64,000 nt of DNA from an uncultured Porphyromonadaceae bacterium (GTDB lineage Bacteria > Bacteroidota > Bacteroidia > Bacteroidales > Barnesiellaceae), in the NCBI GenBank assembly GCA_900538555.1, contig UPYI01000001.1:260273-324272 (forward strand), written 5' to 3'. Position 1 is the first letter of the stretch, and each line of letters starts with the position of its first letter. Positions 37-61,252 of this stretch are shown in pieces. Position numbers and translations under genes: made by a program. The notes beneath the pieces were generated by a model. It did not search any database and was not told the origin of the DNA. It saw only the letters and a list, made by a program, of their open reading frames with translations.

Positions 37-786
37 TTGCGTATGAAACAAAAGTACGGTTTAATCGGTTTTCCATTGGGACATTCGTTTTCCAAAAGTT
101 TTTTCAACGAAAAATTCCAATCGGAAAATATCCATGCGGAATACATCAATTACGAAATTCCGGAGATCAAGAAATTAAAAAAGATACTCACGACCGAAAA
201 AGAGTTGTGCGGACTGAATGTTACATTGCCTTACAAAGAGGCTGTGATACCCTATCTGGATGAGATCGACGACGAAGCCCGTAAAATCGGCGCGGTGAAT
301 GTCATCAAATTCATTCGTTCGGGGAACCAGTTGAAAACCAAAGGATATAATTCGGATATTATCGGATTTTCCGATTCGATAGAACCGTTGCTGACCGAAG
401 CCCGCTCGCATGCATTGGTATTGGGAACGGGTGGTGCCGCCAAAGCTATCTGCGTCGGGTTGGAGAATCTGGGCATCGAGGTAACCAAAGTCTCGCGCGT
501 ACGGAAACCGGGATGTATCAGCTACGACGATATTACACCCGAAATCATGTTCCGCAATAAAATTATCGTAAACACCACACCTCTGGGCATGTACCCGAAC
601 ATCGAATCGTGCCCCAATATACAATACGACAAACTGACACCGGAACATCTATGTTACGACCTGATTTACAATCCGGACGAAACCTTGTTCTTGAAAAAGA
701 GCGCGCAATACGGCGCGGAAACAAAAAACGGACTGGAAATGCTGTTATTGCAAGCATTCGCCACATGGGATATTTGGCAAAGATAA
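37..786 (+). CDS. aroE: Shikimate 5-dehydrogenase
   Basis: The N-terminal YGLIGFPLGHSFS motif is typical of AroE. A Rossmann GTGGAAKA-like motif (LGTGGAAKAI) follows. Length 249 aa. The alternative start at 43 is equally plausible. Confidence 0.85.
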   Translation: MRMKQKYGLIGFPLGHSFSKSFFNEKFQSENIHAEYINYEIPEIKKLKKILTTEKELCGLNVTLPYKEAVIPYLDEIDDEARKIGAVNVIKFIRSGNQLKTKGYNSDIIGFSDSIEPLLTEARSHALVLGTGGAAKAICVGLENLGIEVTKVSRVRKPGCISYDDITPEIMFRNKIIVNTTPLGMYPNIESCPNIQYDKLTPEHLCYDLIYNPDETLFLKKSAQYGAETKNGLEMLLLQAFATWDIWQR

Positions 787-835
787 AACGAGCCGAATAC
801 AGAGCTAAGTTTATTTAGGCTATGTTAAGGCGAAG

Positions 836-925
836 TTTATCTTATATAAAGATAAAGCAAATCGAGAGCAGAGACATCAAATTTATTTGAACGGCTATGC
901 CGAGTGCTGCCTATCTTCTATAAAA
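836..925 (+). repeat. Family-1 promoter-like repeat, copy 1 (between aroE and the LysR gene)
   Basis: Roughly 88% identical by manual alignment to unit 2 of copy A: TTTATCTTATATAAAGATAAAGCAAATCGAGAGCAGAGACATCAAATTTATTTGAACGGCTATGCCGAGTGCTGCCTATCTTCTATAAAA. Confidence 0.75.
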
Positions 926-935
926 TGGAAAAACG

Positions 936-7594: not shown

Positions 7595-7921
7595 TTAGCG
7601 TTGCGGTTGTTCGCCGGCTTCGGGTACCGAAGGATATACCGAATCTTTGGCAATGCGGATGCGGGTGTTTTCTGCAATCTCCACTATAAATGTAGTATCT
7701 TTTACTTCTTTGATTTTGCCGTAGATTCCTCCTGCGGTAACGATTTTATCGCCGACCGTCAATGCTTCGCGGAATTTACGAATTTCCTTTTGTTTTTTCG
7801 ATTGCGGACGGATCATGAAGAAATAGAATACGGCTACCAATGCAACCATCATCAGAATACTCATCATACCACCGCCTTGTGTTGCAGCCTGATCTTGTAA
7901 AAGAATAGATAAGAGTGTCAT
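7595..7921 (-). CDS. yajC: Preprotein translocase subunit YajC
   Basis: A 108-aa protein with a single transmembrane segment (MMSILMMVALVAVFYFFMIRPQSKKQKE) followed by a KVGDKIVTAGGIYGKI-like motif. Confidence 0.85.
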   Translation of the reverse strand: MTLLSILLQDQAATQGGGMMSILMMVALVAVFYFFMIRPQSKKQKEIRKFREALTVGDKIVTAGGIYGKIKEVKDTTFIVEIAENTRIRIAKDSVYPSVPEAGEQPQR

Positions 7922-8076
7922 ACTTTTATTGTTTTTCTGTTAATAAATAACGTGTTTCCATTGCCAGAACCTGTCGAGGTTCACCTCTCCGAACGTTTTT
8001 GCAAGATCGGAGACTATACAAAGATAGTGCAAGCCGAATACAGAGCCGAGGTTACTCAGGCTAATGTTGAGGCGCA

Positions 8077-8258
8077 GCCTATCTTCTACAAAGATAGTGC
8101 AAGGTGAGAACAGAAGCAAATGGGAAACAACGTTTCACGATTTGAATATGCCGAACCGTAGCCTATCTTCTACAAAGATAATGCAAATCGAGAGCAGAGA
8201 CATCAAACTTGTTTGAAAGGGCTATGCCAAGATGCCGCTTATCTTCTACAAAGATAAA
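8077..8258 (+). repeat. Family-1 promoter-like repeat, copy A: 2.3 tandem units in direct orientation between nusB and yajC
   Basis: Units begin with CCTATCTTCTACAAAGATA(G/A)TGCAA. The reverse complement of 9408-9590 matches this region at about 90% identity, as judged by manual alignment. Confidence 0.8.
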
Positions 8259-8266
8259 CAAAAATA

Positions 8267-9193
8267 TTATTCTTTTGTTAGAACCCGTTGTTTTTTTAGG
8301 TCATCGACAATGGCATCGAGTACTCCATTGACGAAAACACCGCTTTTGGGAGTACTGTATGCTTTGGCTATTTCGATATACTCGTTCAACGTCACCCGTG
8401 TAGGTATGGCGGGGAAATTGTAGATTTCGCAAAGCGCCACCATCATGATCACGACATCCATGAACGCGATACGTTCGGCTTCCCAGTTTTTCGTGAAACG
8501 ATTGATATAGTCGCGGTATTCCTCGCTTTTGAGAACGGTTCCACTGAACAGTTCGCCGGCAAAGCGGGCATCTTCTTCGTCTTTGTACATCGGCAGAAGT
8601 TTCTGCGAAACACCATTCTCCGGATCGAAACGTTTGATGGTTTTCAGAACGAACGTAGAGATAATATCCAGATCGTCGTTCCAATAAAGGGATTTCGATT
8701 CCAACAATTCGATCAGATCCTCGTCGGTAGAGATAATCGTTTTGAACGTCTTGCGCCAGAACTCGCTATCCGCCTCGTACGAATTGTCGGACGACGACAT
8801 GTATTCGGCATATATATCGCTTTTCAGAATACGATCCAACAAATCGCGGATGAACTCCGGATCATTATCCCACGACACTTTGTGCTCGTCGAAATAAGAT
8901 ACATAATCGAAGCAAGAACGCAATTGCGCGATGAAACGGTTATCGACAAAACGCATATTGGGGTTCTTCTCCTCGGGCGTAGCAAAGAACTTTTGTTTAG
9001 CTGCTTCTACCCGATTGCGTTGCGCATCGGTAAGCGAGACCATCAAAGCCAACAACAAATGATATAACTCATAGGATTTTTCCAGACTGAAAATCAACTC
9101 TTTTTCCGCCGCGTGCAATGTTCTGTCCTTGGTAAGGAAATAGGAATACGCCATTTGAACGACCTTAATGCGGATTAAAATACGATTCACCAT
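8267..9193 (-). CDS. nusB: Transcription antitermination factor NusB (long Bacteroidetes form)
   Basis: A NusB-fold C-terminus (EYIEIAKAYSTPKSGVFVNGVLDAIVDDL) is present. Length 308 aa. Synteny with yajC, ybbR and coaE supports the call. Confidence 0.8.
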   Translation of the reverse strand: MVNRILIRIKVVQMAYSYFLTKDRTLHAAEKELIFSLEKSYELYHLLLALMVSLTDAQRNRVEAAKQKFFATPEEKNPNMRFVDNRFIAQLRSCFDYVSYFDEHKVSWDNDPEFIRDLLDRILKSDIYAEYMSSSDNSYEADSEFWRKTFKTIISTDEDLIELLESKSLYWNDDLDIISTFVLKTIKRFDPENGVSQKLLPMYKDEEDARFAGELFSGTVLKSEEYRDYINRFTKNWEAERIAFMDVVIMMVALCEIYNFPAIPTRVTLNEYIEIAKAYSTPKSGVFVNGVLDAIVDDLKKQRVLTKE

Positions 9194-9407
9194 ATTGAAA
9201 CGAAGTATGTAATGAACTATGTTATATGTTTAAGCATCTTTCTTGCGTTGCAAAGGTAGTGCATTTTTGTCTGTGAGCCTATACTTCCCGCCTCTTTTTT
9301 TCGGAAGGAAGCCCTTTTTTACGGGTTCTGCTTTCATTTTGCCACCGATCGGGAAATAAGTTTTTATCATTTTTTATTTGTTCTGCAAAATAAATTTAAA
9401 TATCTTT

Positions 9408-9590
9408 GTAGAAGATAGGTTGCATCTCGGCAAAGCCATTCAAACAAGTTTGATGTCTCTGCTCTCGATTTGCACTATCTTTGTAGAAGATAGGCTACGG
9501 TTCGGCATAATCAAATCGTGAAACACCGTTTTCCATTTGCTTCTGCTCTCACCTTGCACTATCTTTGTAAAAGAGAAGCGGCATCCCGGC
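9408..9590 (-). repeat. Family-1 promoter-like repeat, copy B: inverted relative to copy A, upstream of nusB and of the DUF3276 gene
   Basis: TATCTTTGTAGAAGATAGG modules occur three times. These provide TAnnTTTG boxes on the plus strand facing the gene that starts at 9700. Confidence 0.8.
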
Positions 9591-9699
9591 AAAGCCATTC
9601 AACAGATTCGATGTCTCAGCACCGGACTCTGCATTCGTTCCGTCCTACCGCTTTTTATTGGGAGGATATATTATTTCATATTGTTTGATCAAGAATATC

Positions 9700-10041
9700 A
9701 TGAAAGACGACACAAAAGAGATCGACATTATTTATTCGAAAACCATCAAGGCTGGTAAACGCATCTATTATTTAGATGTAAAGAAAGACCGGAAAGACGA
9801 GATGTTCCTGACTATTACGGAAAGCAAAAAGGTAGTGAACGGAACGGAAGAAAGTCCGGTAGTCCAATTCGAAAAGCATAAAATATTCCTATACCAAAAG
9901 GATTTCGACAAGTTGCTCGACGGACTTCATGAAGTAATCGAATACATAAAACAACGGCAACCCTATGCCGAAGAAAACGGTTATGCGGCTACGGAAGAGA
10001 AATCTTATTTCGATTCATTCCTCGACGATTTGGAAAAATAG
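9700..10041 (+). CDS. DUF3276-family (PUR-alpha-like) nucleic-acid-binding protein
   Basis: Residues IIYSKTIKAGKRIYYLDVKKDRKDEMFLTITESKKV match the conserved DUF3276 core. The ORF-track start at 9658 adds an unlikely hydrophobic extension, so the ATG at 9700 is preferred. Confidence 0.6.
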   Translation: MKDDTKEIDIIYSKTIKAGKRIYYLDVKKDRKDEMFLTITESKKVVNGTEESPVVQFEKHKIFLYQKDFDKLLDGLHEVIEYIKQRQPYAEENGYAATEEKSYFDSFLDDLEK

Positions 10042-10227
10042 ATCGAGGTTCACCCTCATCGCTTTTTGAAACAGCCCGGACAGACATCCTCTATCCGCAA
10101 AAGGTTTTATTTCCCAGCCCAATAGCCGGAGCTGTCCATACCGCCCCATTCTCCATTATGCCAACCGGACAAAGCAGGAAAGGCAACGTGCCAAAAACGA
10201 AAGGCATTCAGACATTCTAACGCACCG

Positions 10228-10272
10228 AAAAGGGGGTGCATCGAAACGAATGATTTCGATGCACCCCCTTTT
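10228..10272. terminator. Bidirectional rho-independent terminator between convergent genes
   Basis: A perfect 19-bp stem (AAAAGGGGGTGCATCGAAA pairing with TTTCGATGCACCCCCTTTT) with a 7-nt loop. It is flanked by A and T runs on both sides. It forms part of repeat family 2. Confidence 0.8.
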
Positions 10273-14964: not shown

Positions 14965-15137
14965 GCTATCGTTCTCAGGTTACAATACAGTGATGAAAGT
15001 CCTTTTCTCCCATCGCACTCCGGCAAGTTCTTAACCGTTGAAGATCTTACCGAAAGGGGCAAGCCTATCCGCCCCGTAATTCGTACGACCGCGCACTTAT
15101 CTTTACAGAAGACAAGCGGCATTTTAAAACCAGACTC

Positions 15138-15200
15138 TATATTCGGCTCACATTATCTTATGCAAAGATAAGATAAAGCCGATATACAAACAAGTTTATA
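15138..15200. repeat. Family-1 promoter-like repeat, degenerate copy
   Basis: The sequence TTATCTTATGCAAAGATAAGATAAAGC...CAAACAAGTTT resembles copy 1. A TATCTTTG box lies on the minus strand facing the GT4 operon. Confidence 0.5.
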
Positions 15201-15342: not shown

Positions 15343-15537
15343 ATGACATATACGAAAAAATTAACCCGCTCGATTACAGATCGTAAAATCGGTGGTGTGT
15401 GCGGTGGTCTCGGTGTTTATTTTGGAATCGACCCGACCGTTCTACGGGTTATCGCTATCCTCCTCTGCTTTATTACCGCAGTGGTTCCCATGACAATCGC
15501 CTATCTGATCTTGTGCCTCGTCATTCCGGAAGAATAA
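15343..15537 (+). CDS. PspC-domain small membrane protein
   Basis: Residues SITDRKIGGVCGGLGVYFGIDPTVLRVIAILL match the PspC domain consensus. A single transmembrane segment is present. Length 64 aa. Confidence 0.7.
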   Translation: MTYTKKLTRSITDRKIGGVCGGLGVYFGIDPTVLRVIAILLCFITAVVPMTIAYLILCLVIPEE

Positions 15538-25474: not shown

Positions 25475-25525
25475 ATCGACCGAAACATCCTCATAGCCTT
25501 TCACCTTAAACATTCTAACGCACCG

Positions 25526-25577
25526 AAAAGGGGCTGCATCGAAAACTTGCATTTCGACACAACCCCTTCTTTCAGTT
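25526..25577. terminator. Terminator-like hairpin (family-2 repeat) between convergent genes
   Basis: AAAAGGGGCTGCATCGAAA ... TTTCGACACAACCCCTT forms an imperfect stem. It is preceded by the conserved ATTCTAACGCACCG module. Confidence 0.55.
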
Positions 25578-25894: not shown

Positions 25895-25980
25895 AAATTT
25901 TTAATTTTCAATAAACGCTGCGCCCCGGCAAATCGGTTCAAGTTTCTACTTGACCGCTTCTGCACCCGGCTTGCAGTTTA
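25895..25980. repeat. Family-2 element, 3' module only
   Basis: AAACGCTGCGCCCCGGCAAATCGGTTCAAGTTTCTACTTGACCGCTTCTGCACCCGGCTTGCAG matches 39760-39835. Confidence 0.6.
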
Positions 25981-32610: not shown

Positions 32611-32836
32611 TCTATCTTTGCGCAGAGCGCGAACATAGGAAACGGCTCGGCATAGTTCAAATAATTTTGACTCTGCACTCGCCTTTTGCTATATTTATAG
32701 AATATAGGAGGCGGCTCGGCATAGTTCAAATAAATTTGACTCTGCGCTCGCCTTTCGCTATATTTGTAGAATATAGGAGGCGGCTCGGCATAGTTCAAAT
32801 AAATTTGACTCTGCGCTCGCCTTTCGCTATATTTGC
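32611..32836 (+). repeat. 69-bp tandem repeat array (about 3.3 copies), diverged member of repeat family 1, upstream of maeB
   Basis: The unit AGGAGGCGGCTCGGCATAGTTCAAATAAATTTGACTCTGCGCTCGCCTTTCGCTATATTTGTAGAATAT starts at 32637, 32706 and 32775, a period of 69 bp. Each unit carries a TATATTTG box on the plus strand. Confidence 0.85.
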
Positions 32837-39644: not shown

Positions 39645-39838
39645 GTTATCATGCCCAACCTGTTGCGTTACCATCGGAAATCGGGCTAAGTCATTTATAT
39701 CAGTAAACGACCTAGCCCGATTCTTCTGCACATTGCATTTTAAACTTTTAGATTTCAACAAATGCTGCGCCTCGGCATAATCAATCCAAGTTTTCTCTTG
39801 ACCGCTTCTGCTCTCGCTTGCAACCCCCTTTCGTTTTC
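39645..39838. repeat. Family-2 mosaic intergenic element, longest copy
   Basis: Shares the 5' module CCAACCTGTTGCGTTACCATCGGAAATCGGGCTAAGTC...CAGTAAAC with 51236-51290 and 61093-61150. Shares the 3' module GCTGCGCCTCGGCATAATC...CTTGACCGCTTCTGCTCTCGCTTGCAA with 25895-25980. Confidence 0.7.
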
Positions 39839-47030: not shown

Positions 47031-47438
47031 TTTGACTAACCGGAATAAAAGCGGCATGCGGCATCGGGACAAACCAACCAGTCGCACATAAGTACTACAT
47101 CATTATCCGTTCGGTCCGCAAGTATCAAAAATTACACGTATTACTGCGCCTCTGCTCTTTTAAAGCGAATTATTACAGCAATGTAAACATAAATTACACA
47201 TCGTATTTTGACCGTTATTTTTATCTTTGTAGAGATGTAAATTGTGTTTCAACTCTCTGTTTCCGACTTCGGGAATAACAGGATTATACCGAGACACAGC
47301 GTTTATTGGAAATGAAACGTTTAAAATAAAAAAGAGGAATGTTCCGGATCGCCATGTCCGACAAACCATACCATGAATGTTCGTATCACGATTATATCAA
47401 AATAAATTATAGTATCACTTTTTAAATTCAACACTATC

Positions 47439-51176: not shown

Positions 51177-51235
51177 AATAAGTTAATTGAGATTACTTTC
51201 CGGTGATACAGTTCCAATACATAAAGGTAAAGTCA

Positions 51236-51362
51236 TAATGTCCAACCGGCTGTGTCGCCATCGGAATTCGGGCTAAGTCGTTTACGCCAGTAAACTCCTG
51301 TCGTCCTCATCCCCGGCGCCTTGCAATCTTAGAGATTCTAACGCACCGACAATACCCCGACA
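51236..51362. repeat. Family-2 mosaic intergenic element
   Basis: Roughly 85% identical to 61093-61220. Contains ATCGGAATTCGGGCTAAGTCGTTTACGCCAGTAAACTCCTGTCGTCCTCATCC...CTTAGAGATTCTAACGCACCGA. Confidence 0.7.
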
Positions 51363-60900: not shown

Positions 60901-61092
60901 TTAAAATTTTATTGCACGCAAAGGTAATCATTTTTCGCGGAGTGGATCGCATTTCCGTCTGTTTTTTTACAGTTTTTTTCGCCGACAGGCAATCGCCGCA
61001 ACGAAACAACCAGCAATTTCCCTCCGGCGCACCCCGTCCCGACAATACCGCAACCATACTGCGCCTACCTGCACCGACAAGACAATATGCCA

Positions 61093-61252
61093 TAATGCCC
61101 AATCTGTTGCGTTGCCTTCGGAATTCGGGCTAAGCAGTCTCCGTCAGTAAACTCCTGTCATCCTCATCCTCTGCGCCTTGCATCTTAGAGATTCTAACGC
61201 ACTGAAAAGGGGCTGCTTCAAAATGTAAGTTTTGAAACAACCCCTTGTCGAT
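61093..61252. repeat. Family-2 mosaic intergenic element with terminal hairpin, downstream of recQ
   Basis: The 5' module matches 51236-51330. The sequence ATTCTAACGCACTGAAAAGGGGCTGCTTCAAAA(TGTAAG)TTTTGAAACAACCCCTT forms a terminator-like hairpin at its end. Confidence 0.7.

Follow-up and report, generated by a model that had tools for sequence, protein, structure and literature searches.

The window analyzed here is a stretch of 64,000 nucleotides from an uncultured Porphyromonadaceae bacterium (contig UPYI01000001.1, positions 260,273 to 324,272 of the forward strand). Judged by its NusB protein, the organism is an uncultured relative of Coprobacter/Barnesiella; the best named NusB matches are at 72% (a metagenome-assembled genome [MAG] labeled "Coprobacter sp.") and 69% (Candidatus Barnesiella excrementigallinarum). 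Five intergenic loci, termed A to E, carry one to three repeat units each. Locus A lies between aroE and a LysR gene, B and C lie on either side of nusB and precede yajC and a DUF3276 gene, D precedes a GT4 operon, and E precedes maeB. The loci are copies of a palindromic intergenic repeat family that is widespread in Bacteroidales and is fused to the sigma-ABfr -7 box, TAnnTTTG.

An earlier note on this DNA, made by reading the letters, had proposed a dispersed family of tandem, promoter-like repeats at these five places, and a genuine repeat family was found. The 17-mer TATCTTTGTAGAAGATA, with up to 3 mismatches allowed, has 12 matches in the window against 0.04 expected, a number reached by 0 of 100 shuffles. 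A profile hidden Markov model (HMM) built from 148 units recovered all five loci and refined their coordinates, with E values of 1e-5 to 4e-20 and a weaker match for locus D (E = 0.013). When the units were aligned, the similarity extended beyond the 8-bp promoter consensus into unit bodies that are homologous between loci. Identity within subtypes is 84–89% for alpha (A1/B1/C1), 92% for beta (B2/C2), 77% for gamma (A2/B3), and 98% for E2/E3, and falls to 50–79% (mostly 55–75%) between subtypes. The 80–90% identity given in the earlier note therefore describes units of one subtype roughly (77–98%) and does not describe pairs of different subtypes. The units, put there at 70–85 bp, measure 56–84 bp in the window. 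Elements account for 10 of the 13 TATCTTTG boxes in the window, and the other TAnnTTTG boxes vary at the middle "nn" positions, which argues for a repeat family rather than a promoter consensus. The palindrome with TATCTT and AAGATA arms and the TAnnTTTG box are where the note had placed them, and the copies do face yajC, the DUF3276 gene, the GT4 operon, and maeB. A sixth copy suggested near 47225 was discarded; the site (47222-47237, + strand) has a sigma-ABfr -7 box, TATCTTTGTAGAGATG, that stands alone, without a unit body or an HMM match. New here are two relics, a long palindrome that takes in the whole unit, the order-wide extent of the family, and arrays that are polymorphic in copy number.

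Table 1. Repeat units, boxes, and relics in the window. Units are read on the strand that carries TAnnTTTG, which is the strand given.
Feature	Position	Strand	Description
Locus A	778-928	-	Two units and a terminal -7-like box
Unit A1	855-928	-	Alpha type; left half of core degenerate, CCATTTTATAGAAGATAGG
Unit A2	786-854	-	Gamma type
Terminal -7-like box, locus A	778-785	-	Overlaps aroE stop codon (784-786)
Locus B	8019-8256	-	Three units and the proximal yajC -7 box
Unit B1	8181-8256	-	Alpha
Unit B2	8097-8180	-	Beta
Unit B3	8027-8096	-	Gamma
Proximal -7 box of yajC	8019-8026	-	yajC ATG at 7921
Locus C	9401-9630	+	Three units upstream of DUF3276 gene (ATG ~9700)
Unit C1	9401-9475	+	Alpha
Unit C2	9476-9559	+	Beta
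Unit C3	9560-~9630	+	Degenerate alpha, merging into DUF3276 gene leader
Locus D	15098-15172		Single degenerate unit
Left core, locus D		+	TATCTTTACAGAAGACAAG
Right-end palindrome, locus D	15170-15163	-	TATCTTATGCAAAGATAAG, reads TATCTTTG on this strand; faces GT4 operon (start 14964)
Locus E	32613-32835	+	Three units upstream of maeB (ATG ~33033)
Unit E1	32613-32689	+	P1 loop expanded
Unit E2	32690-32758	+	Core variant TATATTTGTAGAATATAGG, both arms changed
Unit E3	32759-32827	+	Core variant TATATTTGTAGAATATAGG, both arms changed
Proximal -7 box, locus E	32828-32835	+	
Relic body	25917-25977	+	GCTGCGCCCCGGCAAAT...hairpin...CTGCACCCGGCTTGCAG, then decayed box TTTATCTTTAT; lacks 5' core; faces 3' end of a gene
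Relic body only	39764-39821	+	GCTGCGCCTCGGCATAATCAA...CTGCTCTCGCTTGCAA; no -7 boxes; downstream of a gene

Within the window, loci B and C are related as an inverted pair. The array of locus B begins 10 nt past the nusB stop, and locus C is its inverted copy across nusB (8074-8220 versus 9436-9582, 147 nt, 92% complementary), with the same alpha-beta unit order. The shared inverted block implies that B and C have exchanged sequence; nusB itself had the same orientation in 8 of 8 contigs from the same species. Locus A, which the earlier note had described as aimed at no obvious gene start, runs antisense into the 3' end of aroE, with the LysR ATG at 936 on the other strand. The aroE stop sits in the terminal -7-like box of this locus as CAA AGA TAA on the + strand (778-786), and some strains have CAT AGA TAA at the aroE end. 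The C terminus of AroE may thus be supplied or reshaped by the repeat. Near locus D, gene callers place a 64-residue PspC-domain gene at ~15343-15537 (+ strand) in conspecific contigs, between uvrB and the GT4 operon and downstream of the locus on the + strand.

Each unit begins with the 19-mer TATCTTTGTAGAAGATAGG (degenerate core form, TAYMTTTGNNNAAKRTAGG), followed by (A/C)TGC-NNN-CTCGGCA. Its middle is a hairpin that varies in sequence and length and has a loop of mostly CAAG or TAAA, and its 3' part, TGC-N-CTCG-NNN-(C)TT(T/G)C(A/G)C, closes at the next TATCTTTG. Seen as a palindrome, which spans AAGATAGG to TATCTT, the left half reads TATCTTTG-TAG-AAGATAGG(A/C), three co-varying base pairs, and CTCGG up to the variable hairpin (CAAG-type loop), and the right half reads CTCG, the three co-varying partners, and (T/G)C(A)C-TATCTT. 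Units across the family are 64–92 bp long. The right arm together with TG recreates TATCTTTG, so that n units provide n+1 head-to-tail sigma-ABfr -7 boxes, and the final box of an array is the -7 box of the gene's own promoter. Apparent single copies consist of the 19-mer, a body, and a second -7 box that lacks the AAGATAGG extension, followed by the gene; arrays contain additional units of 19-mer plus body. The distinctive property of the element is that its terminal repeat is a promoter -7 box, and each insertion or duplication would consequently make another promoter.

The extent of the family was assessed in species-representative genomes, scanned with the exact 19-mer as seed, which yielded at least 115 stretches (designated by L numbers below). 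Carriers of the exact 19-mer among the matches listed include Prevotella, Alistipes, Barnesiella, Tannerellaceae, Parabacteroides, Muribaculaceae, Rikenellaceae, and Bacteroidaceae. Alistipes putredinis DSM 17216 has at least 8 loci, Prevotella bivia DSM 20514 has at least 5, and two uncultured "Porphyromonadaceae" MAGs have at least 9 stretches each; many Prevotella MAGs are also represented. Together, the window and the matches listed contain 206 cores in 130 arrays (78 single, 35 double, 12 triple, four of 4 units, and one of 6), with periods that cluster at 64–66, 73–76, and 82–85 nt.

Candidates for a spread outside Bacteroidales were rejected. Contigs labeled Chloroflexaceae, Pseudomonadales, Clostridiales, and Flavobacteriales show the core alone in apparent coding regions, as does one Bacteroidales MAG contig (L060), and these core-only matches (four plus L060) are about the number expected by chance, which we estimate as ~4 in 596 Gb. 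An origin in phages or plasmids was also rejected: only 17 unannotated "Bacteriophage sp." fecal contigs match, there were no plasmid matches, and the two exact 19-mers in IMG/VR both stand without a unit body. Two Cytophagales species, Pontibacter coccineus and P. indicus (L024 at 7157, L095), have the exact 19-mer at orthologous positions ahead of a gene, and what comes after it is a different GC hairpin (GGGAGGGATGCCTCCC) instead of the unit body known from Bacteroidales. Full arrays were seen on contigs binned as Acidaminococcaceae and Wujia chipingensis (Firmicutes; L012, L015, L020, L082), among them the six cores of L012, which form five identical 65-bp units and a terminal core. The Firmicutes-labeled arrays probably represent contamination of the bins by Prevotella-like DNA.

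The conserved feature of the unit body is its pairing. An RNAalifold analysis of 32 diverse units gave one long imperfect palindrome from AAGATAGG to the next CTATCTT. Helix 1, between AAGATAGG(A/C) and (T/G)C(A)CTATCTT, is 97% paired; its flanking pair is A-T in 69 and C-G in 42 of the 122 scored cells of a covariance model (CM) alignment, with 7 unpaired, and A-T in 17 and C-G in 15 units of the 32-unit seed alignment, with none broken. Helix 2 joins the three bases 5' of CTCGG to the three bases 3' of CTCG (ATC/GAT, GGT/ACC, GCC/GGC, and GGC/GCC in the four window subtypes), helix 3 pairs GC with GC, and helix 4 is the variable hairpin (P2). In the 32-unit alignment 93.6% of cells are paired, compared with 80.6% after shuffling, and double changes number 81 versus 29. 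The corresponding values for 125 CM matches are 94.6% versus 78.7% and 369 versus 115, an alignment that is fitted to the model and whose pair counts lean toward structure. The observed pairing values were reached by 0 of 500 shuffles, and in slid controls, with partners moved by 1–3 columns, 36–54% of cells were paired.

The short TATCTT/AAGATA palindrome (P1) co-varies as well, with TATATT/AATATA at locus E and in L036 and, elsewhere, TACCTT/AAGGTA, TATTTT/AAAATA, and TGTCTT/AAGACA. AAGATAGG therefore has two possible pairing partners, the adjacent upstream TATCTT and the -7 box that follows downstream. Every window unit folds to one hairpin on either strand (DNA parameters; -8.9 to -14.7 kcal/mol, z = -1.6 to -4.1). 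Two features are conserved yet unpaired, TGTAG ahead of helix 1 and a direct CTCG/CTCG internal loop; the GTAG immediately 5' of helix 1 is at least 90% conserved, although it may simply be the end of TTTG plus start-site sequence. Of 148 units, 63 have AA at the center of P2 and none has TT, which gives the unit a fixed polarity. An array variant in L039 (6647-6805, 1739-1964) has cores of the form CTGTCTTTG...AAGACAGG and enlarged P1 loops with small hairpins of their own.

Strong covariation in four helices around conserved unpaired motifs is also what a structured 5' leader or RNA element would leave, whether an mRNA stabilizer, an RNase III/E processing site, or a protein-binding leader, the DNA repeats then being only its genes. 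Transcripts from an upstream box would start at about AGAUAGG, a start that the spacing from the -7 box places at the 5' foot of helix 1, and their 5'-terminal hairpin would enclose the next -7 box. On the CM alignment, G.T exceeds A.C by 69 to 41, as pairing in RNA would predict. However, this excess comes mainly from the variable helix 4 (28 versus 10), where alignment can favor G.U; the fixed helices 1–3 give 41 versus 31, and a strand-neutral count of mismatches, which has little power, gives 58 versus 54. RNA free energies are slightly lower for the bottom strand, whose folding is no poorer than that of the top strand. The units lack a terminator and match no Rfam family at either the gathering score or the E-value cutoff (zero matches at gathering score in the whole window, and chance-level ones only at E up to 10 across 7900-9700). 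Transcripts of this kind are not expected at the positions of some copies and relics, and sister species lack the element at the same genes. Palindromy thus looks close to strand-neutral, with no convincing strand bias in three measures, and a cause at the DNA level (cruciform, single-stranded DNA [ssDNA], or arm-to-arm correction) fits at least as well as an RNA hairpin. The reading as 5' leaders of small RNAs (sRNAs), which the earlier note had listed among its explanations, found no direct support, and we regard an RNA leader as unlikely. The FopS/GibS sRNA family of Bacteroides was considered and rejected, as FopS has a terminator and an Rfam model and the units have neither.

Near strand-neutral palindromy is also expected of a feature that acts on DNA, such as a binding site of a global dimeric regulator, another proposal of the earlier note, or a supercoiling-sensitive cruciform switch that gates the promoter. 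In keeping with this idea, P1 overlaps the -7 box and the start site, and the 3' arm of P2 falls at the -33 position. The arms of P1 co-vary, however, and P2 has no fixed sequence, being wholly different between genomes, which argues against recognition by a single protein with fixed sequence specificity. The AT-rich stems contain internal loops, and neither an operator nor a cruciform explains the dispersal of the units or their changes in copy number. We consider both very unlikely.

The boxes fit sigma-ABfr promoters in their -7 sequence and in their position. In such a promoter, a -33 TTTG is expected ~19–21 nt upstream of the -7 box, and transcription is expected to begin 6–8 nt past that box. 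The box at the start of the unit fits TAnnTTTG in 89–94% of the HMM-found units of the fetched loci. In B. thetaiotaomicron, the sigma-ABfr consensus is TAnnTTTG, and the 5' untranslated regions (UTRs) have a mode of 23 nt and a median of 32 nt (PMC7366714); the -33 motif is weak across Bacteroidetes generally (PMC7366714). The median distance from the proximal (terminal) box of an array to the ATG is 28 nt, in agreement with those UTR lengths. A co-oriented open reading frame (ORF), called in the fetched loci simply from its ATG, lies within 600 nt of 112 of the 130 arrays, the median distance from the last core being 101 nt. The right-hand gene is co-oriented in 95 cases and opposed in 11 (38 versus 6 in co-directional contexts). 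In 53% of units, a TTG precedes the next box by 16–24 nt, and it is the 3' arm of P2 that occupies the -33 position expected for that box. The downstream genes are unrelated. Besides those in the window, they encode a LysM protein, an AraC regulator, MmeI-type and Dam methyltransferases, a thioredoxin-family protein, RmlC, a U32 peptidase, IspD, and a GH20 enzyme. A homologous upstream region therefore precedes non-homologous genes, which is the defining property of a putative mobile promoter. Locus A and the two relics do not lie at promoters, so promoter use cannot be what maintains every copy.

Copy number was compared among metagenome contigs from different human-gut metagenomes that were assigned to the same species by identical NusB, LysR, or TetR proteins. 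Unit number differs among them by whole units, always at the core. Contigs with identical NusB have 0, 1 (gamma), 2 (alpha-gamma), or 3 (alpha-beta-gamma) units in the nusB-yajC spacer and 0, 1, 2, 3, or 4 extra units on the DUF3276 side. Locus A has 1, 2, or 3 units, including an alpha-gamma-alpha allele (L125) whose third unit is a mosaic, and locus E has 2 or 3; locus D is constant in length in 4 conspecific contigs. These are head-to-tail units of tens of base pairs whose number varies between strains, as in a minisatellite (variable-number tandem repeat, VNTR). Several short-read assemblies (L136-L140) stop inside the 69-bp array of locus E, an indication that the repeats fragment metagenome assemblies.

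Sister species have just one plain TATATTTG box, and zero units, at their orthologs of the yajC and DUF3276 promoters, and the arrays are accordingly seen as lineage-specific additions onto existing promoters. The populations of units are also characteristic of their genomes. Mean body identity is 0.73 between different loci of one genome and 0.61 between genomes; 32% of pairs within a genome, and 2% of those between genomes, are at least 80% identical. For 44 of 86 units, against 4 expected, the most similar unit in any other array belongs to the same genome.

Gains and losses of whole units at 19-bp cores are what slippage or unequal exchange would produce, and could reflect purely local tandem duplication of ordinary promoters, with no mobility and with the likeness between loci due to a shared consensus. 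The alpha, beta, and gamma bodies, however, are common to loci A, B, and C at 77–92% identity outside the promoter boxes, other -7 boxes in the window have a variable "nn", and the same architecture precedes unrelated genes in many families. Nor does local duplication account for sister species without any unit at orthologous promoters, or for the mosaic third unit of L125, which one unequal exchange leaves unexplained. This alternative is largely refuted by the homology between loci, with unit bodies that are not fixed in sequence, and we judge it the least probable of those considered.

Dispersal to unrelated promoters calls for comparison with mobile elements. Like miniature inverted-repeat transposable elements (MITEs), the units have terminal inverted repeats, are polymorphic for presence and absence, and are dispersed in multiple copies. 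The MITE description fits in part: inverted ends and polymorphism are found, and a parent element was not seen around the copies. Target duplications that differ from one copy to another are not evident, with units flanked by the same sequence, TATCTTTG(TA), throughout. In six arrays (L004, L010, L015, L025, L061, L086), the first box differs (TACC, TACT, or TAAT), the later boxes are TATC, and the local palindrome is broken at the first box. Such a box could mark the resident promoter at the left junction; the signal is weak, as TATCTTTG accounts for 80% of leftmost boxes and 87% of the others. Clustering of 1282 ORFs from 115 loci (each of up to 8 kb) gave no recurrent transposase or mobile-element protein, and a regular expression for the HUH...Y arrangement of the TnpA/RAYT subclasses found no HUH/Y1 motif in ~1.1 Mb around the copies.

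A specific form of mobility would be that of a REP/REPIN-type element, moved as folded ssDNA by a single-copy HUH enzyme (RAYT/IS200-like) that recognizes the GTAG at the foot of the hairpin and the CTCG/CTCG loop. The units resemble the REP/BIME and REPIN elements of proteobacteria (with RAYT transposases) in being dispersed short imperfect palindromes, often clustered, with changes that keep the hairpin and with genome-specific populations. They also share the GTAG tetranucleotide at the foot of the hairpin, which lies directly 5' of the palindrome and is required by neither pairing nor the -7 consensus. Compensatory changes that keep the hairpin have been reported for REPINs, and Bacteroidetes encode TnpA(REP)-like proteins of subclasses 2.6, 2.4, and 1.2 (PMC6006769). 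On the other hand, REPs with GTAG have not been reported in Bacteroidetes (PMC3733652), and the subclass 2.6 REPs of B. xylanisolvens (CAGCGGATT-TAT-AATCCGCTG) are unlike the unit (PMC6006769, Table S1), as are the other "atypical REPs" described beside RAYT genes of Bacteroidetes. The sequence around the copies has no RAYT gene flanked by units, no HUH/Y1 motif, and no recurring adjacent protein family. In the REP-RAYT system, REPs lie mostly downstream of genes, have GC-rich stems, and form head-to-head dimers, whereas the units lie 5' of genes and co-oriented with them, include a sigma-ABfr -7 box in addition to their AT-rich stems, and are arrayed head to tail. By its lack of a nearby RAYT, its position, and the composition of its stem, the element falls outside the REP-RAYT system, and it belongs to no Rfam family. 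We therefore find movement of this type quite improbable.

Other known repeats share some of these properties. Correia elements (CREE, Neisseria) and ERIC (enterobacteria) are non-autonomous elements of 70–150 bp with inverted-repeat ends that are polymorphic among strains; they can give promoters to their neighbors and fold to long hairpins when transcribed. The present units are unrelated to them in sequence and host, have no TA target duplication, have a terminal repeat that is a -7 box, and stack in tandem. Pneumococcal BOX elements and promoter VNTRs are modular repeats with variable internal units, stem-loop potential, and copy-number differences among strains near gene starts. BOX units do not each rebuild a promoter box, whereas here every junction is a -7 box. 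BrickBuilt of Porphyromonas gingivalis, which is in the same order, is likewise an intergenic combination of minisatellite and MITE (PMC4596501). It is a different element, restricted to its species, and its published summary has no feature that matches the unit. Putative mobile promoters were cataloged by Matus-Garcia, Nijveen, and van Passel (2012; PMC3488235) as homologous upstream regions before non-homologous genes within and between genomes. Theirs is a general catalog that mentions, for Bacteroidetes, only one enriched genus; neither this family nor its palindrome or tandem behavior is part of it. A literature search returned no paper with the 17-mer and no description of this Bacteroidales repeat family.

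The explanation that we favor, with somewhat better than even confidence, is a stackable mobile promoter: a non-autonomous, REP/MITE-like element that also behaves as a minisatellite. The earlier note had offered a MITE-like mobile promoter cassette as one possibility, and it is preferred here on the strength of the unrelated downstream genes, the variation in number within species, the absence of units from the orthologous promoters of sister species, and the homogenization within genomes. Each box, from its consensus and context, would be an active sigma-ABfr promoter, and an extra unit would add an upstream promoter. It would also place a long hairpin in the promoter DNA and at the 5' terminus of transcripts started upstream. 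Differences in unit number may then shift downstream expression from strain to strain, and the element probably tunes gene expression in this way. The unit is proposed to spread to, or recombine with, -7 boxes, with recombination or slippage at the 19-bp cores lengthening and shortening the arrays. New loci might be seeded by an enzyme acting on folded single strands or by template switching at -7 boxes.

Several observations weigh against a stackable mobile promoter. Activity of the upstream boxes is predicted from their match to the consensus and their context only, and a -33 TTTG at the right spacing (16–23 nt) is present in only 29% of units. Promoter function leaves both the whole-unit palindrome and the conserved unpaired TGTAG and CTCG/CTCG unaccounted for, and the array variant of L039 keeps its pairing but loses the TA of the -7 box. 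With no transposase or HUH/Y1 motif near the copies, mobility is deduced from distribution alone. The 8–10-bp direct repeat that flanks the units is identical everywhere, which makes a target-site duplication indistinguishable from recombination at the core. The orientation bias could arise from targeting of oriented -7 boxes rather than from selection for promoter function. Finally, seeding the scan with the exact 19-mer biased the sample toward canonical cores.

A bolder version of the mobile promoter is one that we put forward only tentatively and think less probable. Here, a hitherto undescribed mobile element active across the gut Bacteroidales would recognize the -7 box, insert there and rebuild it, and so make rapidly evolving, strain-specific "volume control" arrays for housekeeping genes and surface genes. 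Recognition could be by pairing of the AAGATAGG end with the target CCTATCTT in ssDNA, with some enzyme performing the movement.

If the units are active promoters, strains of one gut species with apparently identical gene content would, through unit number alone, differ in expression of genes such as yajC, maeB, glycosyltransferase operons, methyltransferases, and glycoside hydrolases, and a hidden layer of strain-level variation would exist in Prevotella, Alistipes, Barnesiella, and their relatives. The arrays break short-read assemblies and would confound promoter prediction. The element could serve as a natural modular promoter part for engineering of Bacteroidales, and it offers a clean system in which to study how the arms of a palindromic repeat stay complementary and how such a repeat reaches new promoters.

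The window contains a second, unrelated family of non-coding repeats. Copies of ~130–160 nt lie at 61089-61247, 51232-51352, and 39645-39745 (+ strand), and the 3' part alone is found at 10205-10270 and 25503-25568. The sequence is CATAATGCCCAAyCTGTTGCG...CAGTAAAC...GCGCCTTGCATCTTAGAGATTCTAACGCACyGAAAAGGGGCTGC-loop-GCAGCCCCTT. It has no Rfam match, lies mostly at the 3' ends of genes, and ends in a terminator-like GC hairpin. This family could be an sRNA or a 3'-end element.

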